From NCBI GenBank assembly GCA_039796775.1, contig JBDKJD010000004.1:6103-70102 (forward strand): a stretch of DNA of 64,000 bases, in the 5' to 3' direction. The position numbers and the translations under genes were made by a program. Shown in pieces: positions 11,749 through 38,493 of this stretch. A model generated the notes under the pieces. It was not told where the DNA came from and ran no database searches. It was given only the letters and a program-made list of their open reading frames with translations. The stretch comes from Candidatus Parcubacteria bacterium (lineage in GTDB: Bacteria; Patescibacteriota; Minisyncoccia; Phycocordibacterales; UBA5272). Each line of letters begins with the position of its first letter. The stretch's first letter is position 1.

Positions 11749-14700
11749 TTAGACAACAGATAAATACACCACACCAGAAGAAAGTTCGACCACGTTCTCG
11801 GTAAGCGATATGTCGACTTTAATTTCTTTTATTTTGCAAACAGAAAGAAGTGAAGACATGTCTCCAAAATCAAGATCTTTTGAGATAGTGAGAGTTATCT
11901 CATCTCCAGGGACGAGCCCTGCTTCTTTGCGAGCATCCTGTACTGCGCGCATTACCTTACGGAGATCCCCCTCTTTCTGCAACTCTTCGGTGATAGTTGT
12001 ATCTAAGGTTACATCTTCTACTTGGCTTACATCATACTTAACCTCTTTCACATTAAGCTCATCAAGTATGAGCTGTTTATATTCATCATCTAGTTTTTCT
12101 TTAAATGTGACAGAAAGGAGAGGCTGCTTAACATTAAGCTTAAGAGCTGTTCTTTTCATGAGTCCTAGGGAGACAAGTTCACGAGTCTTCTTCATCATAG
12201 TGAGAACTTCTTCTTCGATCATTCCTTCGCTTGGCCAGCTCTCTAGGTGTACAGATTCTTTCTCTTTGCTCACCGTCATATAGATACGCTCAGCCATAAA
12301 CGGCATAACAGGCGCTATAGCTTTTGAGAATACATCTAGGGCGTATGATAGTACTCCGTAGGTTTCTTTCTTTATCTCCTCACCTTCATCTCCTTTAAGT
12401 GCGCCTCTTGTGCGGCGTACATACCACACAGAAAGATCATCCACGAACTGATCGACTCCTCGAGTTGCTTCATCAAGAGTGTAGGAGTTATACCCACTAG
12501 TTGCGTCTCTTACAACCTCATGGACACGACTAAGTATCCACCTGTCTAGTACATTGTTTCCGACAGACATTCTTTCTGCACCGTCTATCTTATTCATCTC
12601 GTAGAGAGAGAGCACATTCTCAAGACGCTGTATAACTTTTTTGTACACCTCTTCCACACTCTTATCTGAGAACTCAACACTCTCACCCTTAATAACTGGC
12701 GATGATAAAAGAAAGTATCTAATTGCATCAACACCGAATTTTTCTACAAGTAGAAGCGGGTCAGTATAATTTTTCTTACTCTTACTCATTTTCTCTCCAC
12801 CTTCTGCAAGCACCACGCCATTTACAATGACATGTCTGTACGGCGCCTTATCAAAGAGTCCGACACTTAGATTGATGAGTGAATAGAACCAACCTCTTGT
12901 CTGGTCCATCCCTTCTGCGATAAAGTCAGCAGGAAAGTTTTTATCAAAGAGTTCTTTGTTCTCAAATGGATAATGAAGAGAAGCGAAAGGCATAGACCCA
13001 GATTCGTACCAACAATCAAACACATCAACTACACGCTTGTATTCTTTCCCATCAATCTCTAAGACAACCTCATCTATATACGGACGATGAAGATTAATAG
13101 CTCCAGTCTCATCTCTTGGGACGAGCAATAGATCAAGCTTTCTCACTTCTGCATTGCCTGGATAAAGCTTCGCACCTTCATGTTCGTCATCATGTATCAA
13201 CTCTTCTTCTGTTGTGAGAGTAGCTCCAGCAAAAATCATACGCGCAGGACCCCCGTGGGTAACGATGAGAATATTTTTTCCTTCATAGTTCTTCTCAAGA
13301 TCACAGAGTGCGGCCACGGAGCGATGCATCATCTCTTCGTGAGTCTCTCCGCCTTCTACACGAGTATCATATGCAACGAATGATCCAGGAAGAGAGGCGA
13401 AGTATTCATCCCTACTCTTCCCGTCAAAGATTCCCATGTCATACTCTCTCAGTCTTTCATCAAACTCAACCTTAACGCCAAGGATACTGCCAACAATCTC
13501 TGCTGTTTCCTTTCCACGAAGTACAGGAGACGCGACAATCATGTCTATCTTTTTGTCCTGAAGAAGTAGAGCGGCGTCTGTTGCCTGACTCATCCCCTTT
13601 TCCGTAAGATGATTATCTTTATTGGTGCCTTTATCTAAAATATTATTCACATTGCTCCACGCTTCTCCGTGACGCATGACATAGTAGGTGTTCTTTGGTT
13701 TATCTTTGCGAAGCTGCGCGAGCTCTTTCAAGGAACCCAAAACTTTTATATCTCCATCTTCGCTCTTCCACACAGGAAGTGGTGCCCCCCAATACCGTGT
13801 GCGAGATACAGCCCATTCACGAGCCCCTTCTAACCACTTGCCGAAACGGCCATCTTTAATATGTGACGGTGTCCAACCAATCTTACTATTTTCTTCTAGG
13901 AGTTTGTCTTTGATTTTTGGAACATCGATAAACCATGACGATGTCGCATAGTTAAGAAGCGGTGTAGAACATCTCCAGCAGAGTGGATATGAGTGGACTA
14001 TCTTATGCTTCTCAAAAAGCTTCCCGTTATGGGCGAGCCATTTAATGATTTCAATATCAGCTGATTGAGTATCATCCTTCTTCTTCACTTTCATTCCAGC
14101 AAAATCAGTCACAGCATCTGTGAATGTTCCATCCATCTTCACGTGCTTAATAATTGGTATCTTGTTAGCTTTTGCTAATTCCATGTCATCTGCTCCAAAG
14201 GCTGGAGCTTCGTGCGCGACACCTGTTCCTGTGTCGTCGGTGATGAAGTCTGCGTGCCATATCTTCCAAATGTTTTCTTTGTTCTCAAGAGAGACGTCTT
14301 TGAAGTAAGCAAATGGTGGGAGGTATGACTTACCTATCAAACTATTAACATCTACTATTTCTCCTACGGTAAACACCTTTCCTTTGAAAGTTTCTTCCAC
14401 TCGACTTTTAGCCAGAATAAAGGTTGCACCTTCTTCCCCTTCTACATTCATTACTTTTACATACTCTATATCTTTATGGATTGCGAGTGCTGTATTTCCA
14501 GGAAGAGTCCACGGTGTTGTAGTCCACGCGAGAACATATGTTCCCAGCTCATCACAAAGCTCAAACTTCACAGTTACTGAGAGATCTGTGACATCATGAT
14601 ACTCAAGACCAACCTCTGATTGAGCAAGCGGGGTCTCACATCTCGGACAGATATGCATCATCTTATTCCCTTCATATGCGAGACCCTTCGTATAGAGTTC

Positions 14701-15513: not shown

Positions 15514-16017
15514 TTAGGATAGAGATGATATCTTTTCTTTATCTAAAAGAGCAATGTTATCTGCTGTAAAAACAGGAGTATACAATCTAACTGAAACATA
15601 CAGATTTTTATCAAAAGTAACAAGAGGAACTCCTATAGCTAAAGAGTGTGCAGCTATAGTAAGATCTGTTGTTCTTAAAAAGTTATCCCTAATCTTTTTC
15701 TTAACCTCTTCTTTGCTGTGAAACTTATGGACGGCTTTAATAAAACTCAAGAAAGACAACTTAAGGACCACTACACCGGGATCAAAAATAAATTTAGTAA
15801 TAGCTTTTTGCACATCCTCTGGATGATAACCTTTTCTTAACAAAACAATAGCTGTCTCTTCTATGCTCGTCTCACTAACAAAAATTCTTTTCTTTTTTCC
15901 TAAGTCTGATCCTATCTTTCTCACAAAATCTGCCGCAGCAGAACTTAACTCTTCATCAGGAACAAGTAGACCTATGACAACATTGGAATCGATCAGGAAG
16001 CCACTATACTGATCCAT
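15514..16017 (-). CDS. PIN-domain ribonuclease (VapC-like toxin)
   Basis: N-terminal FLIDSNVVIG.. and C-terminal TDLTIAAHSLAIGVPLVTFDK acidic-quartet pattern. Confidence 0.7.
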   Translation of the reverse strand: MDQYSGFLIDSNVVIGLLVPDEELSSAAADFVRKIGSDLGKKKRIFVSETSIEETAIVLLRKGYHPEDVQKAITKFIFDPGVVVLKLSFLSFIKAVHKFHSKEEVKKKIRDNFLRTTDLTIAAHSLAIGVPLVTFDKNLYVSVRLYTPVFTADNIALLDKEKISSLS

Positions 16018-16237: not shown

Positions 16238-17971
16238 CATTCTCTCAGGCGCATTACATCCAAGAACATGGAGCCCGTCCTTGAGAATATACTTCACTCT
16301 TCTCACAATAGCTAAGCGATGAGCATTCCCCTCCACATCTTCCTCTACAATAATCTGATTCGATGCATAATAACTATTAAATGATTGGGCGATAGTAAAA
16401 AGATAACTCACGAGCTTCTGTGGTGAGAGTGTATCGATAACGTCTGTGAGCACTTCTTCGTAATGAAGCAACTCTCTTTCAAGTGATGTAGCTGCGAAAT
16501 TACCAAACTCTGGATTCTCGACACCACCCTTCTCAAGAAGTGATGAAGTACGTGCATGCGTATACATGAGGTACGGACCAGAGTCTCCTTCAAATGACAA
16601 TGACGTCTCAGGGTCAAAGTTAATATTGATACCCGGCTTTGAACGAAGCACTGCCACACGAAGTGCAGAGAGTGCAACATCTCGCACAAGACTATCTTTT
16701 TCTTCATCACTTAAGTGCGCAATTTTGTCACTACTTTTTTCTCTTACTTCTTCTTCGACTGCAGCAATAACATCAAGCGCAAGCGGTACACCACCTAAGC
16801 GACTAGACATCTTAGCTCCTTTAAAGAGCATGCGACCGTGAGGTACGTGTATACTTTTATCAGCCCACGATTTCCATGTGGCATCTATCTTTGAAGTCGC
16901 ATCAAGAACAACCTTGAAGTGGTGCGTCTGTTCTGTGTCTGTTATAAAATATGATACATCAACATTTCCGTACTCAGTAAACTTTTTGTAAATAAGCCCT
17001 ATATCTTTCGCTTCGTAGGTTGGGTGCCCTTCGCTATTAATGAATACTGAGGTATTAATATCTTTTCTCTCTTCATCTGGAACATAGACGATTGCACCCT
17101 GACTTTCAGTAAACACTTTCCCTTCTCCAGTGTGATTAAGAACAATTTCTTTCCCGATCTCTTCAACATCACTTTCAAAAATAACTTTTCCCATTTTTGA
17201 GCCAAGGCTTTCGAGTGCGTTTTCAAAATAGATAGTATTAATGCTTCTTGCTTTGTGCCATAACTCTACATCTTCTCCAGAATTTTTCTCATAAAGATTC
17301 TTAGCGATCTGTCGCATCTCTTTTTCTGCTTCTTGATTTTCTTTTGCAAGAGCTACTCCACGCACGTAACAGGTTCCGAAATAATCTACTATCTTTGACT
17401 CTTCTTCAAGCGAATGATCTTGTAAAAGAAAATTAATATCAGGTGACACACCCTCTTCTTTATCCTTCTTCCAAATATAAATAGCCTTGGCGATACCAAA
17501 AGAAATGTCAGATGGGAAACATAGTACTTGGGGTTGTGTCCCTCCTCTTGCTACAGCACGAGTAACAAACTCTCCGACAATATTATTCATCAAGTGCCCA
17601 ATATGGAACGGCTTAAAAAGGTTCGGAGATGAGTGCTCAACAAGAATTTTTTTTCCTTTTAATCTTATAGAGATTTCTTTTTCTTTGTTTTCTTCTCGGA
17701 TCTTTTCGTCTGTTAAGAAAAAATTAATAAACCCAGGACCTGCGATTTCTATTTTAGAAATAACGCCCTTTTCTTTTAAAGCAATCTCGAGTTTCGCAAC
17801 AAACTCATCAGCAAGAGCTTTTGGAGAAACACCTCGCGGTTTAGCAAGAACAAGACATACGTTAGTAGCGTAGTCACCATAAGCAATATCAGAAGGGGTC
17901 TCAAGAATAAATGACACATTTTCTCCTCCTAATTTCTGTATTTCATTTTTTATGACATCATATGCATTCAT
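16235..17971 (-). CDS. argS: arginyl-tRNA synthetase
   Basis: ArgRS N-terminal add-1 domain, HIGH motif (PFHIGHLMNN), C-terminal DALM anticodon-binding domain. Confidence 0.9.
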   Translation of the reverse strand: MNAYDVIKNEIQKLGGENVSFILETPSDIAYGDYATNVCLVLAKPRGVSPKALADEFVAKLEIALKEKGVISKIEIAGPGFINFFLTDEKIREENKEKEISIRLKGKKILVEHSSPNLFKPFHIGHLMNNIVGEFVTRAVARGGTQPQVLCFPSDISFGIAKAIYIWKKDKEEGVSPDINFLLQDHSLEEESKIVDYFGTCYVRGVALAKENQEAEKEMRQIAKNLYEKNSGEDVELWHKARSINTIYFENALESLGSKMGKVIFESDVEEIGKEIVLNHTGEGKVFTESQGAIVYVPDEERKDINTSVFINSEGHPTYEAKDIGLIYKKFTEYGNVDVSYFITDTEQTHHFKVVLDATSKIDATWKSWADKSIHVPHGRMLFKGAKMSSRLGGVPLALDVIAAVEEEVREKSSDKIAHLSDEEKDSLVRDVALSALRVAVLRSKPGININFDPETSLSFEGDSGPYLMYTHARTSSLLEKGGVENPEFGNFAATSLERELLHYEEVLTDVIDTLSPQKLVSYLFTIAQSFNSYYASNQIIVEEDVEGNAHRLAIVRRVKYILKDGLHVLGCNAPERM

Positions 17972-18010
17972 GTCTCTATACTACATCATTTGTTATATAT
18001 TAAAAAGAAA

Positions 18011-18042
18011 GAGCCAGAATTTGCGTACGCAAATTCTGGCTC
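18011..18042 (-). terminator. 32-nt perfect palindrome (GAGCCAGAATTTGC GTAC GCAAATTCTGGCTC) between tmk and argS
   Basis: 14-bp stem, followed on minus strand by U-rich tract. Confidence 0.6.
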
Positions 18043-18060
18043 TCATGCATGCATGAGTAA

Positions 18061-18759
18061 TCAAAACTTTAAATTAAGCCGAGGCCTAATTTTTTCGACT
18101 ACCAGCTGGTGTACTTCAACACGGGTCAATTCATACCCATCATCACGTACGCATGGAATACTGAGCCAGTTAAATGTTTTGGCATAAAACATTCCTGCCT
18201 CATGTCCGTTTCGGACATATACTAGATCACGCTCTACTGCATCAAGCTGACCACCCGTTGACTGAGCTCTCAATTGTGCACGTTTCTGAGAAACCTCAAA
18301 CGGTAATTCAAGATATACGGTCACGTGCGGAGGTGGAAGCTTAAGCATTCCATACTCAAAATCATAGAGCCATCGACCAAACTTTTCTCTTTCTTCTTCT
18401 GTTGGAAACTTACCACCCTGGTGAAGTAAGTTGGATTCAACATATCGATCAAAGATCAAAATGTCATTTACTTGAATCAATTGCTCTAAATGTGGAAGAG
18501 ATTCTCTGCGATCTGCAGAGTAAAGTTGACTTGCGGCATATGGATCAACGTTTGCAAAGTTGTATACGTCTTTGTTGGGACCTTTCAGTGCCTCCCACAA
18601 AGCCCAACCCCCTGCGGTCTATTTATACCTTGGAAAGGAAACACTCCCGACGGTTTTTCCTTTCTCCGTAAACCACTTTTTAAGCATACTGCTTTGAGTT
18701 TCTTTACCAGAACCGTCTGACCCTTCAATAGCGATCAAAATTGTATCATTGCTTGACAT
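18061..18759 (-). CDS. tmk: thymidylate kinase, interrupted by a single in-frame TAG (18619-18621) between the P-loop segment and the rest
   Basis: ATG 18759 with AAGGAG RBS; MSSNDTILIAIEGSDGSGKETQSS..VSFPRYK-TAG-TAGGWALWEALKG...IFDRYVESNLLHQGG; whole conserved Tmk core in one frame. Confidence 0.7.
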
Positions 18760-18892
18760 GTCTTTTCTCCTTCACCTTTCGGTATGAATGTAAAATGAAC
18801 CTACATCTTAGCCTACAGTAAAGAAAGAGATGTCACAAGCAAACAAAAAAGGCAGATGTCAATCCGCCTTTTAACCCTTTCGGGAAAGAACT

Positions 18893-20518
18893 TTAATCTG
18901 CAAGAAGGGAAAGTTTGGCCTGAGTTGCCATCTCTCCAGCAAGCCGAGTGAGTTCAGCATCCTCCTTTGTGTCCACGAACCTCATTGCTGCCGCAATCCT
19001 CGGATATACCGAAGCGAACTTCTCATGCATTGTGAGAGTTACCCTGCGGTAACCAGGATGGCCTTCTGGCATGCTCCTGATTTCGTGAAGGTGGAAAGAT
19101 TCACGCGTGTTAACCGCTTCACGCCACCGCATACGGTGCCCGAGCAGGGTGGTGTACTGCGACTCCTGTTCGAACCCTTGCCTTTTAACTTCACCATACA
19201 ACTTTTCCGCGATATCGAACGCCTCAACGAACGGCTTTTCTAGTCCGGCCTCAATCACAACAGGCGGAATCTCGTAGCCGAGGAACGGCGTAAGATCCTG
19301 CCAGTCCATGCCGTCTACTGGGCGATGGCGCTGTAGGTCACGAAAAATCCCATAGTCCGTCACGTTTTCCCACTTGGTTTGTAGGAATTCGAACGAACGT
19401 CCTGGGCGATGGCGCCGGTTGTACCGGGTTCCAATTCCTGCTTGAAGGACTCTCACGAGTTGCTCCTGACTGAGGTTTTGGGCTTGCCGCATGACACTTT
19501 CGTAGCTTTGATCAGAACCTGTCCACAACAAGTCCGCGACAACAGACATCTCATCCTGAGGCCAGTGATTAACCAGGTTGACTTCGACACCAGGGGCAAT
19601 GATCTCTTCCGGAGATAGGTATTCCTTAGCAAGGACACGAACATCCTGCCGGATTTGTCGACGATAATTGATTGCTGCGCCACCGCGTTCAGGGATATCC
19701 GTGCGCTCAAAAAACTGAGGAGCTATGACACGAACTTGTTGGAGAAGCTTCTTCCCGAGCTCGTTGGCTTCCAGGAGATCAAGCGACGCAAGTCGCATGA
19801 TGAGATAGTCAAACGACTGCGCATTGCCGACAATGCCGACTGTCGAAGTCGTCGCAACAGGAAGCATGTTACGTGCCGCATCACATGCTTGGGCGCGGGT
19901 GGCACCCATCCATGCGACTCTTTCCCTTTTTTCTTCTGAAGGATCCGACAAAGAAAAGGGTGACTTCTTTCTGATGTACCCCGAAAGCTCCCGCACCACT
20001 TCTGAGTAGAGTGCGAAAATGCGGTCCATATCCGTGCGATACCTGTTGAGAAGCGTTTCTGGAAAATTCATCGGCACATAGTACCGATACACCAGCTTGC
20101 CGTCCTTGTCGTAAACCTGCACATCAAAGTAGATGTAACGGGTCGACTGTTCAAGGTAGGCAGCGAACCGCCCCCTTTCCAGGAACTTGGTCATGATGTT
20201 AGAGCATTGTTCGACGACGACCGAAAGCGGCATGAGCTGCTGCACCGAGTCGTCACCGTAGCCTGTAATCACACGCTTGAAGAGCCCGTTCAAGACATCA
20301 CCAGATTTACCGGCGAACTCTTTCAGGATCACCATCCGCATGTCGTCCCCCGTGCGGGAGAGACGAGCCATGGCGCCGGCGATCATCAAGGGTTCGGCTT
20401 CGCGAGAGAAGGCATACACCTACCCTTGCGGATCAGTCGTGATCTTGGCCAGATAATTCAAGCCAAATTCGGTAGGAACAGCAATGCTGCCCTCCATGCG
20501 AAAATACTCTTGTTCCAT
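18893..20518 (-). CDS. thyX: ThyX (Thy1, flavin-dependent thymidylate synthase)-like protein with two tandem ThyX-like domains; GC-rich; interrupted by one in-frame TAG (20420-20422)
   Basis: ATG 20518 with GAAAGGAAAT RBS; MEQEYFRMEGSIAVPTEFGLNYLAKITTDPQG-TAG-VYAFSREAEPLMIAGAMARLS..; ARNMLPVATTST...N.QSFDYLIMRL and second-half RHRPVDG / RMRWREAVNTRESFHLHEIRS resemble ThyX motifs; ~50 % GC vs ~36 % flanks. Confidence 0.55.
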
Positions 20519-20602
20519 TTTTATTTCCTTTCGAGAATTGTAACAGGTTGATGAAAAAACTACCCTACTACATCCTACAGGTTTTATTCTTTAAAAGCAA
20601 AA

Positions 20603-21022
20603 CTACTTTCCCGTACTCCCAAACCCCCCTTCCCCACGGAGAGAGTCTGATAATTCAGTTACTTCTTCAATATCTGGGAACTCTACTTTTTGAATAATCA
20701 TCTGTGCAACTTTGTGACCATGGGAGAATGTATATGCTTCATCTGAGAGATTGTGTATCATTATTTTTATATCTCCTCTATATCCTGCGTCAATTACTCC
20801 ACCTAGTGTCTTAATACTTTTAGCACCAATTGATGACTTGTCCCAGATAAGACCAACACACCCCTCTTCTATTTCACACGCGATTCCAGTTGGAACAAAA
20901 AGTGTCTCGTGAGGATTAATCGTATGTTCTCCATATGCATAAAAATCAATCCCAGCATCATCATGATGTGCACGAGTAGGTAACTTTGCTTCATCATAAA
21001 GACGTTTGATTTTAAGTTTCAT
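20603..21022 (-). CDS. dut: dUTP diphosphatase
   Basis: dUTPase motifs (AGIDFYA, GLIWDKSSIG, GVIDAGYRGDIKIMIHN, RGEGGFGSTGK). Confidence 0.9.
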   Translation of the reverse strand: MKLKIKRLYDEAKLPTRAHHDDAGIDFYAYGEHTINPHETLFVPTGIACEIEEGCVGLIWDKSSIGAKSIKTLGGVIDAGYRGDIKIMIHNLSDEAYTFSHGHKVAQMIIQKVEFPDIEEVTELSDSLRGEGGFGSTGK

Positions 21023-21090
21023 AGTAGAAGTATAACAAAAAGAAAAAAGACTGGGCGTAGAGCTCAGTCTTTATTAACGTAACTACAGTA

Positions 21091-22203
21091 TTACCAGGAA
21101 GTAAACTGCTTTGGAAGCTGAGTTTTAGTCTGGCCACTGTAATTACCTAAAGCAGCATATGAAACTGTTTTAGAGCGCATAGTCTCATACTCAAAACGAG
21201 CAAGCGGTTTTTTGTGTCGCAAAAACTCATTCTGTGGAGCAAAAACTTCAAGTGTTGCTGTTCCGAAGAAACCAGGATCAAAGAATCCTGCGAAATGTGT
21301 GAAGAAAAAACCAAGACGAGTATCGAGCGCTTTCAATTCCGCTGTGTGCCCATCTGGAATCTTCAGCATTTCATTAGTAGATAGAAGATAGTACCTTCCT
21401 TTTTCGATACAGACAACACCGTCTGCTTCCCCACCCCCAAAGCGATCCGCATGCACTTCTTCGAAGTAATCACGAGGGTTGAGGTCACGATCAGCAAGAT
21501 TAAGTGGCTTTGCAGTATTCCTTGCTTTATACCCAACATGGGTCTCAGGCTCTGCACACAAGGTACAGAGCACAGAGCCATTATGAGTAAACAACGGTAG
21601 ATATTCTTGGTTGTACGCTTCTTGATTTTGACGACGATACAAGAGATCATTATTTTGAAGGACCTCTTCGAGATCTCGCGGTGTAAAACGAGTGTCGCCA
21701 TCAAAAACACGAAGTTGGTTGTAGCACTCCTTGTTGGTAAAAACAATTGGGTATGCAAGGGGTTGAAGCACAAGCCACAGTTCACCGGTATAACCACGAT
21801 GCCTCACATCAACAGAATCAAACATGTGGACACCATCAGCAAGAGACCGGACGAACAAGAAATTTCTACCAGAACTCGATTTTGCATTCAGATACCCATA
21901 CATTCCTGGAGAGAAGTTGATATCGACGCTTGCTTTGGCAAGATAGGTAGAACCAACCTCCATCACATCTCCGAGATTAATTCTCGAAGCGCCCATTTTT
22001 GGCAGAAGGTTGCGAATCGTTTCATTTTCAAGCTCACTTGGGGAAAGGAGGCGGTTCACACGATACGCTTCACCTGTTGTCGTGAGATCAACTGAAGCGG
22101 GACCGATATGATTTTCAGAAAAACCTGCAAGTGGTTTAATTCTTTTGTTAAGAACAAGATTTTTGAGATCGGTTTGACTAAAAACACCAATGGAGGAAGT
22201 CAT
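21091..22203 (-). CDS. dcd: 2'-deoxycytidine 5'-triphosphate deaminase (long tandem-domain DCD family)
   Basis: two dCTP-deaminase-like halves (SVDLTTTGEAYRV..; FFDPGFFGTATLEVFAPQNEF); ORF track extends to 22272 but first plausible start is MTSSIG. Confidence 0.6.
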   Translation of the reverse strand: MTSSIGVFSQTDLKNLVLNKRIKPLAGFSENHIGPASVDLTTTGEAYRVNRLLSPSELENETIRNLLPKMGASRINLGDVMEVGSTYLAKASVDINFSPGMYGYLNAKSSSGRNFLFVRSLADGVHMFDSVDVRHRGYTGELWLVLQPLAYPIVFTNKECYNQLRVFDGDTRFTPRDLEEVLQNNDLLYRRQNQEAYNQEYLPLFTHNGSVLCTLCAEPETHVGYKARNTAKPLNLADRDLNPRDYFEEVHADRFGGGEADGVVCIEKGRYYLLSTNEMLKIPDGHTAELKALDTRLGFFFTHFAGFFDPGFFGTATLEVFAPQNEFLRHKKPLARFEYETMRSKTVSYAALGNYSGQTKTQLPKQFTSW

Positions 22204-22264
22204 GACAAAATTCCTTGTAAAAAAACAACTCAACCGTAAAGGTTGTACAGTAATAACACTATCA

Positions 22265-22300
22265 TATAACAAAAAAATCTGCGAATGCAGATTTTTTTGT
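22265..22300. terminator. bidirectional hairpin AAAAAAATCTGC GAA TGCAGATTTTTTT
   Basis: perfect 12-bp stem flanked by A/T runs on both strands, between rplK and dcd. Confidence 0.6.
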
Positions 22301-22343
22301 TAATTCTCATACAAATAATGGGAGGGTTTTATATAGTTTTGAA

Positions 22344-22757
22344 TTATTTTACCTTAATACCAGCTGAACGTGCTGTACCTTCGATAATCTTCATCGCTTG
22401 TTCAACGGTGTTAGCAGTGAGGTCTTTCATCTTGATCTCTGCAATCTCTCTCACTTTTTCTTTTGTGATAGTTCCTGCATTACCTTTTGAATTACCTTTA
22501 GCCACGTTAGCTCCCTTCATAACAAGTGAAGTTGCAGTTGGGGTCTTGATAACGAAATCATATGTACGGTCTTCGTACACATAAATTTTCACTGACATTC
22601 TCCCCTGCTGACCAGCTGTAGCTGCGTTAAACTTGTTAACGAAGTCACCGATCTGTACACCTGCCTGGCCGAGAGCTGGACCAAGTGGAGGAGCAGGAGT
22701 AGCTTTCCCTGCTTCTATCTGAACTTTTACGTACTTTGTAATTTTCTTTGCTGCCAT
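22344..22757 (-). CDS. rplK: 50S ribosomal protein L11
   Basis: PAPPLGPALGQAGVQI.. L11 signature. Confidence 0.9.
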   Translation of the reverse strand: MAAKKITKYVKVQIEAGKATPAPPLGPALGQAGVQIGDFVNKFNAATAGQQGRMSVKIYVYEDRTYDFVIKTPTATSLVMKGANVAKGNSKGNAGTITKEKVREIAEIKMKDLTANTVEQAMKIIEGTARSAGIKVK

Positions 22758-22821
22758 AATAGTTTATATAATGTTTTGTAATGCTAACACATTTTTTCTA
22801 AAGTTTCAATATGATTCCAAC

Positions 22822-23367
22822 TTAGACTTTCTTAACCTGAAGAAAATCAAGCTCAACCGGAGTTTCTCTTCCGAACATGTTAACGAATACTTTTAATTTA
22901 CCTCTTGCTTTATCTACTTCTCCAACTTTTCCTTCAAAATCCTTGAAAGGTCCGTCTACAATACCCACAAGCTCCCCTATACCGATTTCGATATCATGAG
23001 TAGTCTCTTGTGTCTTCATGCGACCGAAGAGGAAGTCAATTTCATTTTGAGTAAGAGGAACTGGTGTTGTTCCTGCGCCAACGAATCCAGTCACTCGAGG
23101 GGTGTTACGTACAACATACCAACTGTTGTCATCTACAATCATATCTACGAGAACGTACCCTGGATACACCTTCTCTTCTACTTCTACTCTTTTGGTACCT
23201 TTTACTTTTATCTTTTTCTCTAGAGGGACAACAACGTCAAAGATCTTGTCTTGCATTTGAAGTGACTCAATACGTTGTTTGAGATTTCTTTGTACAGCAT
23301 TTTCATATCCACTGTAGGTATGAATAGCATACCAGTGACGCTCCCCTGTAAATTCTTGTTTGGCCAT
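22822..23367 (-). CDS. nusG: transcription termination/antitermination factor NusG
   Basis: NGN domain (HWYAIHTYSGYENAV) and KOW domain (GELVGIVDGPFKDFEGKV). Confidence 0.9.
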   Translation of the reverse strand: MAKQEFTGERHWYAIHTYSGYENAVQRNLKQRIESLQMQDKIFDVVVPLEKKIKVKGTKRVEVEEKVYPGYVLVDMIVDDNSWYVVRNTPRVTGFVGAGTTPVPLTQNEIDFLFGRMKTQETTHDIEIGIGELVGIVDGPFKDFEGKVGEVDKARGKLKVFVNMFGRETPVELDFLQVKKV

Positions 23368-23413
23368 ATAGTTAAGATGAATTAAAGATTATTAGATAAG
23401 AATAAAGTGTTAA

Positions 23414-23593
23414 CTACGCTACCAATCGAGAGAGTAGCTCTTTGAACCCGATATCTGTCGCCCAAAGTAACACTGCAACAAGGAGTGAAATGACAATAAC
23501 AAGAATCGTATAGAGTACTGTTATCTGACGTGTAGGGAATACAACCTCCTTGAGTTCTTGTTTTGTTTCTTTTAAATACTGCAATAATTTCAT
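23414..23593 (-). CDS. secE: preprotein translocase subunit SecE
   Basis: MKLLQYLKETKQELKEVVFPTRQ + single TM; conserved secE-nusG-rplK order (ORF track start 23662 is probably too long). Confidence 0.75.
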   Translation of the reverse strand: MKLLQYLKETKQELKEVVFPTRQITVLYTILVIVISLLVAVLLWATDIGFKELLSRLVA

Positions 23594-23644
23594 AAATAAA
23601 TAGTTATTATAAATAGTGAACAGATTCGAACCCTTTATTCTAAA

Positions 23645-23665
23645 AAACACCCCGAGGGGCATTAC
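23645..23665 (-). terminator. short GC hairpin CCCC-GAG-GGGG followed by U6 on minus strand
   Basis: seen directly. Confidence 0.4.
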
Positions 23666-23700
23666 TTATACCTTATATAATACTTCCCTCAAAAGAAAAA

Positions 23701-23738
23701 GTCAAGCCCCTTTAGGGTGGCTCGACTTTTTATTACAG
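23701..23738. terminator. bidirectional hairpin GTCAAGCC..GGCTCGAC with T-runs on both sides
   Basis: seen directly. Confidence 0.45.
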
Positions 23739-23740
23739 AA

Positions 23741-23765
23741 AGTAGTTTTACTACTTTCTACGGAA
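23741..23765. other. perfect 8-bp inverted repeat GAAAGTAG-TTTTA-CTACTTTC
   Basis: seen directly. Confidence 0.4.
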
Positions 23766-23790
23766 GTCAGCACGATGGAGCTGCAATAAA

Positions 23791-23830
23791 GTCAAAGAAG
23801 GCGCCGTAAGGCGCCTTCTTTGACTTTATT
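23791..23830. terminator. perfect 15-bp hairpin GTCAAAGAAGGCGCC GTAA GGCGCCTTCTTTGAC followed by T-rich tract (terminator for 23855..24646 and plus-strand read-in)
   Basis: seen directly. Confidence 0.65.
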
Positions 23831-23854
23831 ATTTTTACCCCTTAACGCTTTTAA

Positions 23855-24646
23855 TTATTTCAAAACGTAAGTGATAGAAACATTAGACTTGATCACATTC
23901 TCACCTTGAGGGAGAGATACAGCTTCAGCTCTCATAGACCCTGCCATATCCATAGGCATAGGCATAGCTGCGCTTTTAGCATACATCATTGGCATATATC
24001 CACCATCACTATCGCTAAAGGATACGATAGCTCCAAGCGACACCCCAAGAGATGACGCCAACTCTTCTGCTTTTCTCTCTGCTTCTTTGATGGCTTTTTC
24101 TTTGGCTTCTGCTTTGTATTCTTCGATAGAGTCTACAGTGAAGTCTGGGCCTGAGATTTCTGTGATGTTAGCCTTCCCCACAAGACCCAAGACTTCACCT
24201 GCTTGATCAACCTTGCGAACCTTTACTGTAACTGATTGAGATACTTGATAGCCTGATATCTTTGGAGTATATGAAGGGCATACATATCCATTACATACAG
24301 GGTTCTCATATTCTGGATAAACATTATATGAATTAGTCTTAATATCTTTTTCTTCAACGGAGAGAACTTTGAGTTCACCGAGTGCTGCTTTTATTTTGCT
24401 CTCAACCATTTTTTGTGCCTCCGGTACGGTCTTTGCTTTTTCTCTTACTGTAAACATTACTGTTGCAACGTCTGGCTTAGTTGTCACTTCTGCCTCCCCT
24501 GTGACGGTGACTGTTGCCATCTGACCATTAGGATATTTCATCTCATTAAAAGAAGCTAAACCAAAAGCAAATGCGGCGAATGCGACTCCAAAAAGAGCTG
24601 CAGTCCCTGCAATCCACGTATATTTTTTGTAATTATTTAATTCCAT
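23855..24646 (-). CDS. SIMPL/DUF541-family periplasmic protein (membrane-anchored)
   Basis: N-terminal TM, ..ATVTVTGEAEVTTKPDVA..SQSVTVKVRKVDQAGEVL.. pattern typical of SIMPL family. Confidence 0.5.
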   Translation of the reverse strand: MELNNYKKYTWIAGTAALFGVAFAAFAFGLASFNEMKYPNGQMATVTVTGEAEVTTKPDVATVMFTVREKAKTVPEAQKMVESKIKAALGELKVLSVEEKDIKTNSYNVYPEYENPVCNGYVCPSYTPKISGYQVSQSVTVKVRKVDQAGEVLGLVGKANITEISGPDFTVDSIEEYKAEAKEKAIKEAERKAEELASSLGVSLGAIVSFSDSDGGYMPMMYAKSAAMPMPMDMAGSMRAEAVSLPQGENVIKSNVSITYVLK

Positions 24647-24663
24647 GATTCTAAAGTATTATT

Positions 24664-25764
24664 TTATAAACGACCAAGTGAATACATATAGCCGAGTAAT
24701 AAAAGTATAACAAACAGCATCACAGAGGCCAAAACACTCATCGAGTGATCCACTTTTGAAGGCGTCTCGTCTTCAGGAACTGCTTGATTGCTTGGGTTAT
24801 TAGATGTCGCAACATAGGTATCAATTACAGGAGTTGTGACCGTAGTTACGGGAGTTGGTGCTGGTGTTATGGTGAATAGAGATGTGCCTTTTTTCTCTGT
24901 GAGCATCACCTCCTCTTTGAAGTGTGCATCGACACTTTCTTGCTTTGTGTCTTCTCTTATTACTTCGTGAGTTTTATTTGTCACAAGAGTAGTATCCTCC
25001 ATTTCTTTTATCTGTTCTGGTGAATGCTCTTTGTGGAAAGTTGACTTATATTTAGCGAATGACCACACATGAGGAGAAGACTCGAAAGGAAGCAGGGGTA
25101 GATCTTCTGGAATTGCTACTTCTTTTTTAATACTAGGAATATCTTTTGTTTCTACAAGAGATGTTCTTTCTTCTCTATTGTTAGTATTCTCTAATGACAT
25201 CAGATTGCTCTTAACTTCTGACTGTATCTCCTTTTGCTCACCAATCTCTTTAATCGACTCAGATGTATTATTGTTTGATGAAATATTAATCTCTTCTTTT
25301 TTAATCTTAGGCAACTCAGCAACATCTGTCACAATATTTGATAGATCCCCCTCCTCCTCTCCATCTGCCCTAATAAAAGAAATTTTTTCTTCTCCTTTTG
25401 ACGCTACGATATTCGCTGATGTAACGTCTGGCGTCACAGAAGATTCCTCTATCTTCACTACAGTATCTGGTTGTGCTGATTCTGTAATAGTTGTAGAAGG
25501 CACCTCCAAAGAAGGATCTGTTAGGGGTATCTGTGTCTCGACTTTAGGTTCATTGATTCCTTGTTCTTGAAGAGATGTTTGAGGTGTAGTAGGCACACCA
25601 TTTGCAATAACAGATTGTCTGCCTTTGAATAACAATTCAGCTTCTTTGATATGCTTCTCATCCCAAAGGGACGCTGTGAGAATAGTTCTTAGCGTTTCTA
25701 TCGTCAATTCCTTGTGACGAGACATGAGCTCATCAAGTGATTGCTCTACGGTTGAGAGATTCAT
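24664..25764 (-). CDS. hypothetical tail-anchored membrane protein, acidic/Ser-Thr-rich
   Basis: 366-aa ORF with single C-terminal TM (MSVLASVMLFVILLLLGYMY). Confidence 0.4.
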   Translation of the reverse strand: MNLSTVEQSLDELMSRHKELTIETLRTILTASLWDEKHIKEAELLFKGRQSVIANGVPTTPQTSLQEQGINEPKVETQIPLTDPSLEVPSTTITESAQPDTVVKIEESSVTPDVTSANIVASKGEEKISFIRADGEEEGDLSNIVTDVAELPKIKKEEINISSNNNTSESIKEIGEQKEIQSEVKSNLMSLENTNNREERTSLVETKDIPSIKKEVAIPEDLPLLPFESSPHVWSFAKYKSTFHKEHSPEQIKEMEDTTLVTNKTHEVIREDTKQESVDAHFKEEVMLTEKKGTSLFTITPAPTPVTTVTTPVIDTYVATSNNPSNQAVPEDETPSKVDHSMSVLASVMLFVILLLLGYMYSLGRL

Positions 25765-25799
25765 GAACTAAGTATAGCAACTACTTGATACCTGTCTCC

Positions 25800-27794
25800 C
25801 TATCTTGACTGAAGACTATTAACAAGCGCTCGTATCTCTTGATTATTAGGATTTCTCTTTAAGAGTTCCGCAGCAAGCGGGACAGCCGCTTCTCTATTAC
25901 CCCCATCACGAAGTGATAGTGCCAAGAAGTATGCCACGTTCTCATTATTCTGATCTCGTTCGAGAGCTGCTCTTAGGGCGAGTATTGCGTTTTGATAATC
26001 ACGAGCTGCGTAGAAAAGGAGGCCTGCTTGTGTATAAGCAAGTGGATCATTAGGAGCGCTCTTAATCGCTTCAATAGCATAAGAGATCGCTTGTTCGATT
26101 TGATTATCACTAGCTGAAAGCTGACTCATGAGATAGAGCGCATCTGCAAAGTTCTGCTTCTTCTTAAGCGCTTCTCCTAACCACTCTTTGGCCACATCTC
26201 TTGTTCCTGCTGATGTTTCAAGGCGTGCTTGCATCAAGTATAGGAATGGATTATTTGGATAAAGATCAATCGCTTCCTTATAAGACTTCTTGGCATTTTC
26301 ATATCCTCCTATTCTGTCAAAAGGAATAGCGAGCTCATATGCACGTCCGAGAGAAACATAGTTCTGATAATTAGAAGGATTAAGGTTTCTCGCTTTGAGG
26401 GCTGCATCTACTGCTTCTTGAGATTTGATAAGATAAGCATTCTTGAGAGCTTCCTGATCCTCTGACGCTTGAGAGACAAGATTACGATTAGAGGTGATGG
26501 CGTATTCTACTTTTGCTCTATAGAACCCATCATACTCATATATTCCTGCTGCTTTTTTGATCAACGCTTCAGCTTGCTCAACAGTAGGAGCAGATTGAGC
26601 TTGTGCAAGGAGTGAAAACGCTCTTGCCTTCTCAACACTCACATATGCTTGCACGATGAACAATACAGCAAGTGGTACAAGAAGGAATCCTAGTTTTTTA
26701 TGAGGGTGAAATTCTGTAAGCTTTGCTTTAGCGATTCCTAAACCACAAATCACCATCCACATTACAAGCATTGAATACGACAACGGTACAAGAAGCGCCA
26801 TTCCCAAGAAATACAGCAAAGTGACAAACAAGAGACCCGATGTCTTATGTTCCATCCCCTCTTTGTGTTGGCGATAACTGATAAAGGTACTATAGATAGC
26901 CGCAAGCACAAACAAAAGAAATGAGAGCATTCCAAAAATACCAATGGTCACAAAGAGTGTAGACACAGTATCTGCTCCTTGCAAGAATTCATACCCGAAG
27001 AATTGAGAATTGATAACGTCTTGCGGTCGATACAATTGCCACGCTCGAGAGAAGTTACCAGGACCAACACCGAAGAGACCATCTTCAACAAGAACATTCT
27101 TACCTACCAGAAGGGTACTTTTGAGGTTTGGACGAATACTGTTTTCTGTTGAAATACTCACAGCCCAAGAAATGAAGAGTAGTCCAGTGATGAGCATGAA
27201 TGCTTTGTAACGTTTTTTAAGAGACCCTTTCGCTACATAAAAGAGTACAGCAACAGAGAAGAGCCCTATGTACGTAGCAAAAGACACTGATGAAGAGAAT
27301 GAAGAGAAGAGCCCTTTGGCAACAGTGAGTAATTGTCCACCAATCATAAGTGCTGTCACAAAAACAAGAGCAGATACTGAGAGAATAGCGAGAATAGCTA
27401 CTTTTAATTTTTGACGAATTAATTCAGGGAGCGCTCTTACTAAATACATAATCACAGGAAGTGTAAGGAGGGATGCTCCTGAATAATGATTCAAGCCGTC
27501 TCCGAACAGGAATATTTTTGGGGATGAGGAGAACAAAATAGAAGCAACAACTGAAAAAGCAAAAGCGAAATAGCCCAAGAATTCTAACTTCGAAACAGTA
27601 TGCCATGTTCTTGTAAGAAGAGCGTTAGCAACATACGCAGTTGAAGCGACCGCAACCACAATCATCATGAATACAAAATACGTCGTATCTGCAGGGAGAC
27701 TTGTTTTTGGAATAAAAAACAACGGCGAAGCAACCACGATGAGCACTGTTGCGTATTGATAAATTTTTGAAAGAGATGATAATAAAATATTCAT
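25800..27794 (-). CDS. O-antigen ligase/Wzy-like polytopic membrane domain fused to C-terminal TPR repeats
   Basis: ~10 TM helices N-terminally, then repeated AxxxY/TPR-like units (RAYEL.., YYRAKVEYAI, ALRAALERDQNN). Confidence 0.6.
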   Translation of the reverse strand: MNILLSSLSKIYQYATVLIVVASPLFFIPKTSLPADTTYFVFMMIVVAVASTAYVANALLTRTWHTVSKLEFLGYFAFAFSVVASILFSSSPKIFLFGDGLNHYSGASLLTLPVIMYLVRALPELIRQKLKVAILAILSVSALVFVTALMIGGQLLTVAKGLFSSFSSSVSFATYIGLFSVAVLFYVAKGSLKKRYKAFMLITGLLFISWAVSISTENSIRPNLKSTLLVGKNVLVEDGLFGVGPGNFSRAWQLYRPQDVINSQFFGYEFLQGADTVSTLFVTIGIFGMLSFLLFVLAAIYSTFISYRQHKEGMEHKTSGLLFVTLLYFLGMALLVPLSYSMLVMWMVICGLGIAKAKLTEFHPHKKLGFLLVPLAVLFIVQAYVSVEKARAFSLLAQAQSAPTVEQAEALIKKAAGIYEYDGFYRAKVEYAITSNRNLVSQASEDQEALKNAYLIKSQEAVDAALKARNLNPSNYQNYVSLGRAYELAIPFDRIGGYENAKKSYKEAIDLYPNNPFLYLMQARLETSAGTRDVAKEWLGEALKKKQNFADALYLMSQLSASDNQIEQAISYAIEAIKSAPNDPLAYTQAGLLFYAARDYQNAILALRAALERDQNNENVAYFLALSLRDGGNREAAVPLAAELLKRNPNNQEIRALVNSLQSR

Positions 27795-28065
27795 ACTAAA
27801 TTACTTTTGCTTTATATTGTTAATGATACAGTTTAGTATACTACTTTTAGTGCTAAATTAATGTGGAAACATCACAAAATAAAAAGCTAAAAGAGAGTAT
27901 ACTGAGACTGCGGTCAACATATGGAAACCATAAACAACAACCCCCTCTCTAACAATACACCGATTTCAGTCAAAAAATACATACGCCACTTCTATTTGGC
28001 TTGTATCATCATTTTATTATTCGTTGTGATTTTTGGAATTCTTTATATGAACGGAAAAAGTATTT

Positions 28066-29649
28066 ATGAAAATGGTATCTAGAATATTTGAGTCACTCCC
28101 TCCTCTTTTTGTCCCTCTTTCAAAAAAAATCTCTGGAGAAATCACCTGTCTTCCTCAAGTGAAAGACATGTACGCAAAAAATAATTCCCCGTATTATATA
28201 CAACCTACTTGCATCGTCTATCCAAAATCAAGTTCTGACATAAAAGCAGTACTTCATTTCGCTAAAGAATACTCGATGCCTGTCACGGTGCGTGGACTTG
28301 GCGCAAGCACACTTGGTGGATCTCTCGGGGATGGCATCATTGTTGATATGTCGCGATATTTTAATTCGATACGACACATTAACATGTTGGACCAAGTTGT
28401 CACCTTCGATACTGGCATCACCACACGCACACTTATTGAACAGTTAGATAACATAGGGTATGAGATCCCGACACTTCTTGGAGAAGAGACCACATCCTTT
28501 GGAGGACTCTTCGCCACCAGAAGCGCGTCCCCTTATTCATTCTTTCATGGGAGCATTCGTGATTGGGTCACAGAGGTCACAGTCATGTTAGACAACGGCG
28601 AAGAACATGTTATAGGAGAAGGCATAGCCCCAAGCGGGAGATTGCTCGCTATCTATCAACAATTATTCAAACGACTAGGTGAAGAGTCACCTCATCTACG
28701 GGCATTCAATGCCAATCAAGGTGAAGACGCTACTGGATATTATGTTTGGAATACATCGATTGGCCCTCGTCAGCTCATCGATCAATTGTGTGGTAGTGAA
28801 GGGACGCTTGCAATTGTAACCTCTTTTAAGTGCAGAATTATACAGAAGCGTCCTCATACCGTAGTGTCATATCTCCCCTTACTTGAACATGAAATAGAGA
28901 GCGCTGTAGCTATCGCCAAAAAACACGGAGCTGAAGGACTGTTTTTGTATGACGAAGCGTATATGGAGCTCATCAAACGTTACAGGCCAGGACTTTCTCC
29001 TTTATTCTTAAATGCAGAATATTGCCTCATTGCCATACATAAAGATTTCAATAAAAAGAAATTACATGATCGTGTCGCACTCTTCCATTCACAATTACCT
29101 CTCGATGAACTTTCTATAAAAGCAGATTCTGACATAGAAAGAGCAGATACAATCATGAGCTATTCTTTTGTACATTCATTGTTTAATGAATACAGCAAGG
29201 GTTCACTTGTGACACTTTCTTCATTTGAAGGATTAGTTACCAAACCTCACACCATACAAGCCGTCATAAAAACCCTAACTCAGGAACTTGAGACCAAAGG
29301 ATATGTGAGCTCAGTCACAGGATATGTCGGTAGTTCACATATTGGATGTACTGTATTAGTTGACCCATTCAGTGACACCTATAAGGAAACATTTGTCGCA
29401 TTGCACTCGACACTCTTTACTATAATCTCTCCATTGGTATCAGGGGTTTCTATACACAGCGGAGACGGTATCACTAAGACTCCTTTTATAGAACAGATCT
29501 ACAATGAACGCATGTTCAACTTCTTCAAAGAAATAAAATCAATATGGGACCCGGGATTCATCCTCAATCCAGGCAAGAAGACAACAATCACGCTCGCATA
29601 TATTCAAAAATACTTACACGCAAAAGTTAAGACTAATTACCGACCTTAG
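28066..29649 (+). CDS. FAD-linked oxidase (PCMH-type FAD-binding domain oxidoreductase)
   Basis: VTVRGLGASTLGGSLGDGIIVDMSRY FAD_binding_4-type motif; 527 aa. Confidence 0.65.
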   Translation: MKMVSRIFESLPPLFVPLSKKISGEITCLPQVKDMYAKNNSPYYIQPTCIVYPKSSSDIKAVLHFAKEYSMPVTVRGLGASTLGGSLGDGIIVDMSRYFNSIRHINMLDQVVTFDTGITTRTLIEQLDNIGYEIPTLLGEETTSFGGLFATRSASPYSFFHGSIRDWVTEVTVMLDNGEEHVIGEGIAPSGRLLAIYQQLFKRLGEESPHLRAFNANQGEDATGYYVWNTSIGPRQLIDQLCGSEGTLAIVTSFKCRIIQKRPHTVVSYLPLLEHEIESAVAIAKKHGAEGLFLYDEAYMELIKRYRPGLSPLFLNAEYCLIAIHKDFNKKKLHDRVALFHSQLPLDELSIKADSDIERADTIMSYSFVHSLFNEYSKGSLVTLSSFEGLVTKPHTIQAVIKTLTQELETKGYVSSVTGYVGSSHIGCTVLVDPFSDTYKETFVALHSTLFTIISPLVSGVSIHSGDGITKTPFIEQIYNERMFNFFKEIKSIWDPGFILNPGKKTTITLAYIQKYLHAKVKTNYRP

Positions 29650-30043
29650 GTTTTTTGATGAGCGGTTCCACATGAGATTTTGGATCATAACTTTTTCTCA
29701 CGATATCACGAGCCCAGATACGAAACTCTTTCCCCCATTCCCCGTTGACTCTAAAACCGATAGAAATCAACACGTCTGTACTATATACAAGTGTTGTTCT
29801 TGAGACTTTCTTTTTCCCTTCTAGTTGAGTAACTACTATTTCTCTTTCGTTCAAAGGCTTCACAAGTTCTTTGTCAGCAAAAATTTTCTTCAAATGATCA
29901 TTAATGGTTGGAACACTTTTGCCATAAATGCGAGCTATTCTCTTTTGAGTGCTCCACACTTCTTGATCTATCAAGAAGACCCCCTCCTTAACAAGATGAG
30001 GTTGTATATCAACATGTACTTGGGGTAATGAATTCTTATACAT
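29633..30043 (-). CDS. RhuM-family protein, N-terminal fragment only (truncated)
   Basis: VWSTQKRIARIYGKSVPTINDHLKKIFADKEL and YSTDVLISIGFRVNGEWGKEFRIWARD match RhuM N-domain; only 136 aa, overlaps 3' end of FAD oxidase gene by 17 nt. Confidence 0.6.
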   Translation of the reverse strand: MYKNSLPQVHVDIQPHLVKEGVFLIDQEVWSTQKRIARIYGKSVPTINDHLKKIFADKELVKPLNEREIVVTQLEGKKKVSRTTLVYSTDVLISIGFRVNGEWGKEFRIWARDIVRKSYDPKSHVEPLIKKPKVGN

Positions 30044-30054
30044 AGAGCGCAGGC

Positions 30055-30687
30055 TTATGCATGCATAGTATCACGCTCTTCAAAGCGTTGATAGTCTTTT
30101 TTGAATAACTTTTGAGCTATATGGAATATCGTATACGTGATAAAAAAAGCAGCGAATACATCGATCGTATAGTGAAGATGTGAGAGGAGAACGATAATAC
30201 CATTTGTTACCGCTGCAACAATAAAAATAATTCTCAAATAAAGATGATTCCAAAAGATAAGCGCAATCAAAAATGGTAATCCTGTATGGCCAGAAAAGAA
30301 AAGATCGTTCCCAGAGGTGATGAAGTCGAGTAACCTTGATTCCAAATCAAGCTTGGTCGGATAAGGGCCAATATGAGTCATAGAGACGAAGAACGCTCGT
30401 ATGATAATGAATAGCGATACCGCCTTGATGAGAAATGGTGCTACTTTTTTGAATCGTATAGCAAGCGCAACGACAAAAAGTGTCAGCATAATAGCTCCGT
30501 GCACAAAGAGAATCTCAAAATCATATACACGTGTATTACTCAGTATGATATCTTCAACATAATTACTCGCTTTCACTTCTGCGAATCTGCTCGCAATATG
30601 TGTCGCGTACACACTGATAAAGAAAAGTACTATCGCTTCTAACAGTGAGGTGTAATATTTATCTTGCACGTCTGGAGTACTTGCCAT
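30055..30687 (-). CDS. PAP2-superfamily (PAP2_C-like) membrane phosphatase-like protein
   Basis: 6 TM helices; FSGHTG and SHLHYTIDV motifs. Confidence 0.5.
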   Translation of the reverse strand: MASTPDVQDKYYTSLLEAIVLFFISVYATHIASRFAEVKASNYVEDIILSNTRVYDFEILFVHGAIMLTLFVVALAIRFKKVAPFLIKAVSLFIIIRAFFVSMTHIGPYPTKLDLESRLLDFITSGNDLFFSGHTGLPFLIALIFWNHLYLRIIFIVAAVTNGIIVLLSHLHYTIDVFAAFFITYTIFHIAQKLFKKDYQRFEERDTMHA

Positions 30688-30692
30688 AAGAA

Positions 30693-31265
30693 CTATTGGA
30701 ATTCTAACTGATTCACAATATTTTCATATGCTTTCACAATAGGATCATTTGTTGTTATATAGGTAACAGAGAAGAGATATACCGTATCCCCTCGTGTGAA
30801 GGCAACACTATCCCCTTTATACAACCCATCCCATGTATATGAGAGAGCTTCTTTGTTGTTGAGGACTATTGGTCTTCCTGCTCCTTTTGAGAATATGTAC
30901 GGAGATGCTTTCCTCAAGAAAGTATCTGTATCTTCTGTCGAAGTTTTTTGATACACATGAAGCGTGATAGTAGGCGGAGCCTCTCCAGGAACTGTTGCGG
31001 TATTTGAGAAGAACGCTTTAGCGGAATCAGTATTCTCAAAAATCACAATATTTGGCTGTCCAGGTTGAGCGTTGCTCTCACTTTTCATCATTTCTCCATA
31101 TGCTGCTGGGTACAAAAAACTAACGCCTCCGACAACCGCTCTTTTGGCGGTGAGTGATGTCTCTCCCCCTTCGTTTATTTGTCTATTCTTAATAACAAAA
31201 ATGAGTGCAAAAATAAGCACAATCACTCCGCACAAAGCCAAAAAATTATGTTGATGCTTTTTCAT
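30693..31265 (-). CDS. hypothetical membrane-anchored secreted protein
   Basis: N-terminal TM/signal anchor, no motif. Confidence 0.4.
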   Translation of the reverse strand: MKKHQHNFLALCGVIVLIFALIFVIKNRQINEGGETSLTAKRAVVGGVSFLYPAAYGEMMKSESNAQPGQPNIVIFENTDSAKAFFSNTATVPGEAPPTITLHVYQKTSTEDTDTFLRKASPYIFSKGAGRPIVLNNKEALSYTWDGLYKGDSVAFTRGDTVYLFSVTYITTNDPIVKAYENIVNQLEFQ

Positions 31266-31290
31266 AACAAAAGTATAACAAAATTTATTC

Positions 31291-32136: not shown

Positions 32137-32140
32137 AGCG

Positions 32141-37401: not shown

Positions 37402-37404
37402 AAC

Positions 37405-38481: not shown

Positions 38482-38493
38482 TGTTACAGTATA

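Follow-up and report, generated by a model that had tools for sequence, protein, structure and literature searches.

Thymidylate synthases are subject to non-orthologous displacement and lateral transfer, as the alternation of thyA and thyX illustrates. Phages that recode TAG to glutamine (the genetic code 15 type) are likewise known. In-frame stop codons are widespread in bacterial genes, with a ratio of nonsynonymous to synonymous substitution rates (dN/dS) below 1, according to the only paper, a general one, that turned up in a literature search on amber or other in-frame stops in thyX or in Parcubacteria (Belinky et al. 2021, PMC7918605). Here we describe a 64,000-nucleotide stretch of contig JBDKJD010000004.1 from Candidatus Parcubacteria bacterium (hereafter the window), in which two adjacent genes of the thymidylate pathway each carry a single in-frame TAG. 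These genes are thyX, encoding a flavin adenine dinucleotide (FAD)-dependent thymidylate synthase, and tmk, encoding the kinase of deoxythymidine monophosphate (dTMP). The two stops probably record the recent knock-out or strong knock-down of a dTMP cassette that turns over quickly and can at present be dispensed with. Events of this kind are known; this instance is new, and its interest is mainly for annotation and evolution.

The locus resembles code-15 phages in having TAG at positions where relatives have glutamine, and in having it in nucleotide-metabolism genes, which phages often carry. It differs from them in that TAG is a common terminator here, each gene has one TAG, no suppressor tRNA is seen and tmk is native. 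As in known cases of thyA/thyX displacement, the locus alternates between ThyA(+DHFR), a 453-residue ThyX and a 541-residue ThyX among syntenic relatives, whereas the general phenomenon is seen here as a single-gene swap resolved between genomes about 90% identical, with the incoming gene bearing a stop. Like the genes surveyed by Belinky et al. 2021 (PMC7918605), thyX and tmk are intact and conserved but for one premature stop, have an ancestral sense codon one mutation away and show a low dN/dS against an orthologue. Unlike in those genes, the stop is conserved in no second genome here, and two neighbouring genes of the same pathway are affected.

The tmk frame extends from the ATG at 18759 to the TGA at 18061, and its sole interruption is the TAG at codon 47. 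The Thymidylate_kin profile (PF02223) matches residues 11-171 (E = 5.6e-16) and covers the stop; the NCBIfam model NF005923 also matches. The best solved relative is Mycobacterium tuberculosis TMPK (PDB 1g3u, E = 5e-20), which has the same FPRY...DRY(V)xSN architecture. In the alignment of the two, ...FPRYGQS... of the mycobacterial enzyme lies over ...FPRYK(stop)T... of tmk, with Q at the stop site, and homologues in general have K, Q, E or N there. The P-loop and lid features that define a thymidylate kinase are present (IEGSDGSGKET and DRYVESN), and the protein is 90.6% identical to an intact orthologue, P0242 (239 amino acids), encoded by the metagenomic locus L067. A search of the genome_contigs collection, which lacks the source metagenome-assembled genome (MAG), returned with tmk only Clostridia (32-40% identity) and one Liptonbacteria locus.

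The thyX frame extends from the ATG at 20518 to the TAA at 18893, with the TAG at codon 33 as its sole interruption. The Thy1 profile (PF02511) matches in two stretches (E = 3.3e-24), the first of which begins at residue 47, past the stop. This stop nevertheless lies inside a conserved protein, because 17 full-length homologues (532-552 amino acids) are alignable from residue 1 through to the end and the invariant residues G32, V34, Y35 and F37 surround codon 33. At the site itself the five closest homologues have Q and more distant ones mostly P. The segments LEQSTRYI and LQRHRPVD retain the hallmark S(T/Q)RY and RHR motifs and mark the product as a member of the ThyX/Thy1 family, and the PDB ThyX 3gwc was matched with the thyX profile (E = 8.7e-5). 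A search of the metagenome_contigs collection with thyX found no relatives. Among the Patescibacteria homologues of the long ThyX, the majority (e.g. P0009-P0120) are Tmk-ThyX fusions of 770-800 amino acids, which stresses how closely the two interrupted genes are coupled in function. The long ThyX form is common to the fusions and to the window, whereas here the genes are separate, in the order thyX then tmk, and have their own terminators.

A preliminary description of the window had placed both stops at the coordinates given in the table and had read each gene as one conserved protein broken by one TAG. Both points are borne out: full-length homologues align across both sites, with the tmk stop inside its profile match and the thyX stop ahead of the Thy1 match and within the full-length alignment. 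The ribosome-binding sites ascribed to both genes also hold up, with AAGGAG 5' of the tmk ATG and a weaker AAGGAA 5' of that of thyX. In the public annotation, tmk appears as a 179-residue 'hypothetical' fragment and thyX as a 433- or 508-residue fragment (MEN9552059/60, RI935_436/437), on a contig of 75,233 nt that is present in IMG too.

The codons that preceded the stops can be read from relatives. L067, the closest relative found (about 90% nucleotide identity), was reached through the 90% cluster of the tmk fragment, which holds the full-length P0242 from IMG metagenome 3300079105. Its tmk is intact and has CAG (Gln) at the stop site, and the closest thyX homologue (contigs L001-L003) has CAG at the thyX stop site; each lesion therefore amounts to one C-to-T change in a glutamine codon. 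Intact orthologues and an ancestral sense codon one substitution away are what a nonsense pseudogene would be expected to have. TAG accounts for 49% of the possible nonsense substitutions in thyX and 38% in tmk, so that drawing it twice (p about 0.18) is unremarkable and the shared amber identity uninformative. The non-random feature is their placement, both lesions being in adjacent genes of a single pathway.

Window positions 18014-32757 (14,744 nt), both TAGs included, recur with 100% identity in the Logan contig SRR35185531_445801. This separate assembly excludes an assembler-specific artefact, although it and the MAG probably go back to one set of reads. Of the base-call errors considered in the preliminary description, then, those of an assembler are improbable, and an error at the level of the reads is conceivable. 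Such a consensus error (e.g. from C-to-T deamination damage at low coverage), or the sampling of a sub-population allele in a species whose dominant codon is CAG, would fit with both changes being C to T at CAG and with there being one sampled population of the species. We regard it as quite unlikely, since two different assemblers gave identical sequence over 14.7 kb, two stop-creating errors in adjacent pathway genes among about 16,000 codons are improbable, and lesions of a similar kind are seen repeatedly in relatives from independent samples.

TAG does not appear to be reassigned across the genome. It terminates 14 of the 61 large open reading frames (ORFs) in the window, making it the second most used terminator, and it does so at family-typical ends in ndk and rpsF, as had been recognized before, and also in dut and a GH15 gene, among others. 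Fifty-two other ORFs (15,718 codons) contain 147 CAG and no in-frame TAG, as compared with 19 CAG and two TAG in thyX plus tmk. TAG thus occupies two of 168 CAG-or-TAG positions, both within one cassette; because this distribution has p about 0.016 under a genome-wide model, tolerance of TAG is locus-specific. A six-frame scan of the window found no other conserved gene split by TAG. Three same-frame ORFs divided by TAG (36568-38871) are unrelated genes, and the in-frame TAG candidates at 37405 and 38494 were accordingly rejected as boundaries of separate genes (GH15, SprT-like). A further in-frame stop candidate, at 43331, was rejected as non-coding junk.

As for the decoding machinery, none of the seven tRNAs of the window is a tRNA-CUA, about 2 kb of additional Logan sequence contains no tRNA and hence no CUA anticodon, and a GGQ motif search found no release-factor gene within the window. 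Dedicated amber suppression or recoding would have both genes fully translated, possibly conditionally, either by a tRNA-CUA of chromosomal, plasmid or phage origin or through descent from a donor in which TAG means glutamine. Both sites are glutamine codons in the nearest relatives and thyX was horizontally acquired. TAG=Gln recoding is known from phages, which often carry thyX, tmk or dut. We nonetheless consider such a mechanism very improbable, for besides the terminator usage, the tRNA complement of the 64 kb and the additional sequence, and the confinement of TAG to one cassette, thyX has 28 glutamine codons (14 CAG, 14 CAA) and yet a single TAG, and in viral collections both genes have only distant relatives (23-36% identity). 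A donor code, one of the options raised in the preliminary description, fails for tmk and was rejected as the origin of its TAG, as this gene is native and L067 has CAG. It is extremely unlikely that the UAGs are read as glutamine only when an amber-suppressor tRNA is present, supplied for instance by a TAG-recoded phage or plasmid or by a chromosomal tRNA-Gln(CUA) outside the window, so that synthesis of dTMP and deoxythymidine diphosphate (dTDP) is conditional; if true, this would be the first example of amber suppression controlling host genes in a bacterium of the candidate phyla radiation (CPR). Pyrrolysine decoding was rejected as well, given that the genes are tmk and thyX, that the window has no tRNA-Pyl and that the relatives' residue is Gln or Lys.

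Programmed read-through, also raised earlier, finds no more support. RNA folding of 81-92-nt windows around and after each TAG gave z-scores of -0.5 to -1.7, indicating no significant structure. In the 241 million metagenome records of metagenome_contigs, no match was found to a DNA pattern that covers the tmk family and has TAG at the stop position, and the relatives compared all carry sense codons at both sites.

The two genes belong to a minus-strand nucleotide-metabolism cluster (dcd, dut, thyX, tmk) flanked by rplK and argS. Comparison of the window with L067 by blastn gives 91% identity over 23287-20546 (nusG to dut) and 89% over 18850-18060 (tmk), and none between; similarity breaks off about 27 nt 5' of the thyX ATG and returns about 43 nt past its stop. 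At the same position, L067 and the more distant syntenic L004 have a different thyX, of 453 amino acids. Since conserved spacers bound it and L067 carries the 453-residue form, thyX is a precise single-gene replacement. Judged from these alignments, the swap is dated after the split from the L067 lineage and tmk, with its 89% nucleotide identity, is native. The preliminary description had rightly seen thyX as GC-shifted and foreign: it has 52.7% GC against 39.2% for the window, and its nearest known relatives are merely 73-75% identical.

The spacers on both sides of thyX are conserved in all lineages irrespective of thyX type. They contain a promoter-like motif, TGTAGG(A/C)T, and a terminator hairpin, and may have served as recombination anchors. 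The TTTGCTTTT...CCTGTAGGAT motif of the spacer between dut and thyX would act as a promoter.

Coordinates of the cassette, its stop codons and associated elements in the window
Feature	Position	Strand	Description	Supporting matches
'Long' thyX (FAD-dependent thymidylate synthase, two Thy1-like halves)	18893..20518	(-)	541 codons, one interruption, 52.7% GC	
In-frame TAG, thyX codon 33	20420..20422	(-)	GTG (invariant Val34) directly 3'	
tmk (dTMP kinase, mycobacterial/FPRY type)	18061..18759	(-)	232 codons, one interruption	PF02223, NF005923, PDB 1g3u, L067 orthologue
In-frame TAG, tmk codon 47	18619..18621	(-)	Next base A	
Replaced segment (thyX coding region, ribosome-binding site and stop-proximal spacer)	18850..20546	(-)	No similarity to L067	
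Spacer between dut and thyX	20519..20602	(-)	Promoter-like TTTGCTTTT...CCTGTAGGAT; kept in 7 lineages with either thyX type	
Terminator-like hairpin 3' of thyX	18847..18872	(-)	TTGAC loop, then conserved tmk upstream region ...CTGTAGGCT...	
Terminator-like hairpin 3' of tmk	18009..18044	(-)		
dut (dUTPase)	20603..21022	(-)	Intact; ends on TAG at conserved C-terminus ...GFGSTGK	Same C-terminus in L001, L063
dcd (long 2'-deoxycytidine 5'-triphosphate deaminase)	21091..22203	(-)	Intact	L015 gene call, 370 amino acids

The replacement of thyX is one of many changes at this position. The interval between rplK and argS (window 17971-22344 and 18850-20546) was compared with the loci L004, L009-L018, L062, L063 and L067, syntenic relatives whose flanks have about 65-80% nucleotide identity and whose L11 protein is identical. 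Depending on the lineage, the interval holds ThyA, HIT and tmk; ThyA, DHFR and tmk; the 453-residue ThyX and tmk; ThyA, DHFR, SHMT, a nucleoside deoxyribosyltransferase (NDT), tmk and dut; or a ThyX of the 541-residue type, unrelated to the 453-residue one, with or without tmk. By this comparison, the interval is a hot spot for the exchange of thymidylate-synthesis modules among syntenic Parcubacteria. In L010 it has neither a synthase nor tmk; a 349-residue ORF (13098-14147, minus strand) with no Pfam hit on record takes the place of the thymidylate synthase there.

Relatives also carry damaged cassettes. Three datasets (L063, L064 and L065) share an identical dut frameshift (~147-565) and lack tmk. 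In the tmk of L019 (3595-4292), TAA replaces the invariant Glu of IEGSDG, and a more distant tmk, in L020 (~685-1381), has a frameshift near codon 3. The expectation that tmk is essential and single-copy, put forward in the preliminary description, is weakened by its absence from this locus in L062, L063 and L010 and by the presence of two tmk-like genes, the second with a degenerate P-loop, in L001. Within the window itself, a NADAR-domain gene (6151-6704, minus strand) has a T4-to-T3 -1 frameshift at ~6363-6365, which recurs in the Logan contig L066. Its N-terminal 127 amino acids are in one frame and its conserved C-terminus (…NWWGDAFFGV…GQNHLGKLLMETR…) is in another. Lesions therefore persist in non-essential genes of this genome.

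In the mechanism we propose, both TAGs would be genuine single-base nonsense mutations (CAG to TAG) of recent origin in this lineage, one having hit the native tmk and the other the recently imported thyX. They would persist because this reduced, symbiont-type bacterium can at present do without the thyX-tmk pair or requires no more than traces of it. Release factor 1 (RF1) would terminate translation at both, as at the TAG of dut, leaving a 46-residue Tmk and a 32-residue ThyX fragment, and both enzymes would be lost or severely reduced. The supply of deoxythymidine triphosphate (dTTP) could then depend on another gene copy elsewhere in the genome, on a host or on the environment. The lesions, their ancestral codons, the thyX swap, the damage in relatives and the ordinary use of TAG as a stop are shown directly; this dispensability, the alternative source of dTTP and the production of little or no full-length protein are inferred. 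Two stops in adjacent, dependent genes are better accounted for by a dispensable or replaceable cassette than by any translational mechanism, and recent pseudogenisation is, among the options first listed for this locus, the one that fits best.

Several observations weigh against a recent knock-out. Tmk is normally indispensable, and phmmer searches within the window for a second tmk, thyA, thyX, DHFR, SHMT or NDT found none. A backup ThyA was sought by homologue search and accession look-up, and no MEN955... accession turned up. The base after each stop is a purine (TAG-A and TAG-G), whereas T follows nine of the 14 natural TAG terminators and A follows none, in what is a small sample. TAG-purine contexts favour suppression in Escherichia coli, and the sample here is too small for this to be given weight. 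In comparison with L067, tmk has dS 0.45, dN 0.045 and dN/dS 0.10 (0.07 for the part past the stop), a level like that of dut (0.13) that gives no sign of relaxed constraint. Both genes are otherwise pristine: all family-invariant residues are kept, and there are no further stops or frameshifts, so the relaxed constraint or added decay expected of an older pseudogene is absent. This lack of decay makes a pseudogene compatible only with a very recent event. Either any neutral evolution since the tmk stop arose spans no more than a few per cent (below about 5%) of the divergence from L067, or some full-length protein is made.

The second of these possibilities corresponds to leaky read-through, in which a near-cognate tRNA (Gln, Lys or Tyr) would decode UAG occasionally, yielding low amounts of full-length Tmk and ThyX and making the stops expression throttles, a role that has been proposed for in-frame stops conserved in bacteria. 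For thyX, termination may instead be followed by restart at the adjacent GUG. The low dN/dS of tmk, particularly downstream of the stop, the retention of every invariant residue in both genes and the purine after both stops all speak for this case, as does the GTG directly after the thyX TAG. Both sites are also substitution-tolerant and naturally have Gln or Lys, amino acids that near-cognate tRNAs would supply; in-frame stops with dN/dS below 1 are, moreover, reported to be widespread (Belinky et al. 2021, PMC7918605). However, a very recent knock-out predicts a low dN/dS over a dS of 0.45 equally well, TAG is conserved in no relative and no stimulatory RNA structure is found. A ThyX made by restart would lack residues 1-33 and with them the invariant T16, G19 and G32, and the frameshift and TAA lesions in the cassettes of other lineages are beyond rescue by UAG read-through. 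On balance, we consider leaky read-through unlikely.

If the two stops do reflect a recent knock-out or knock-down, the locus is an ordinary snapshot of reductive evolution, in which a Parcubacteria population's own thymidylate synthase and kinase have just been knocked out or strongly throttled. A backup copy, or reliance on external thymidine nucleotides, would be implied. The locus would gain far greater importance only if read-through or suppression were demonstrated. It also exemplifies the fast turnover of the dTMP cassette between rplK and argS in this clade, and serves as a warning for annotation, as the two interrupted genes stand in public records as 'hypothetical' fragments.

Compared with L067, dcd has a dS of 0.11, as against 0.44-0.73 for rplK, dut and tmk, and a dN/dS of 0.36; the low dS and higher dN/dS suggest a recent recombination or gene-conversion tract over dcd. 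Between ileS and argS, the window has a PIN-domain ORF of 167 amino acids (15514-16017, minus strand) where L004 has only a 29-residue ORF, and this is probably a toxin-antitoxin-type insertion. At 49406-50489, a GC-rich island (about 50-60%) of about 1.1 kb is bounded by 102-nt inverted repeats (49406-49507 and 50388-50489) that are 98% complementary. The small ORFs it encloses have no Pfam match, and the island looks like a small foreign, mobile or invertible element.

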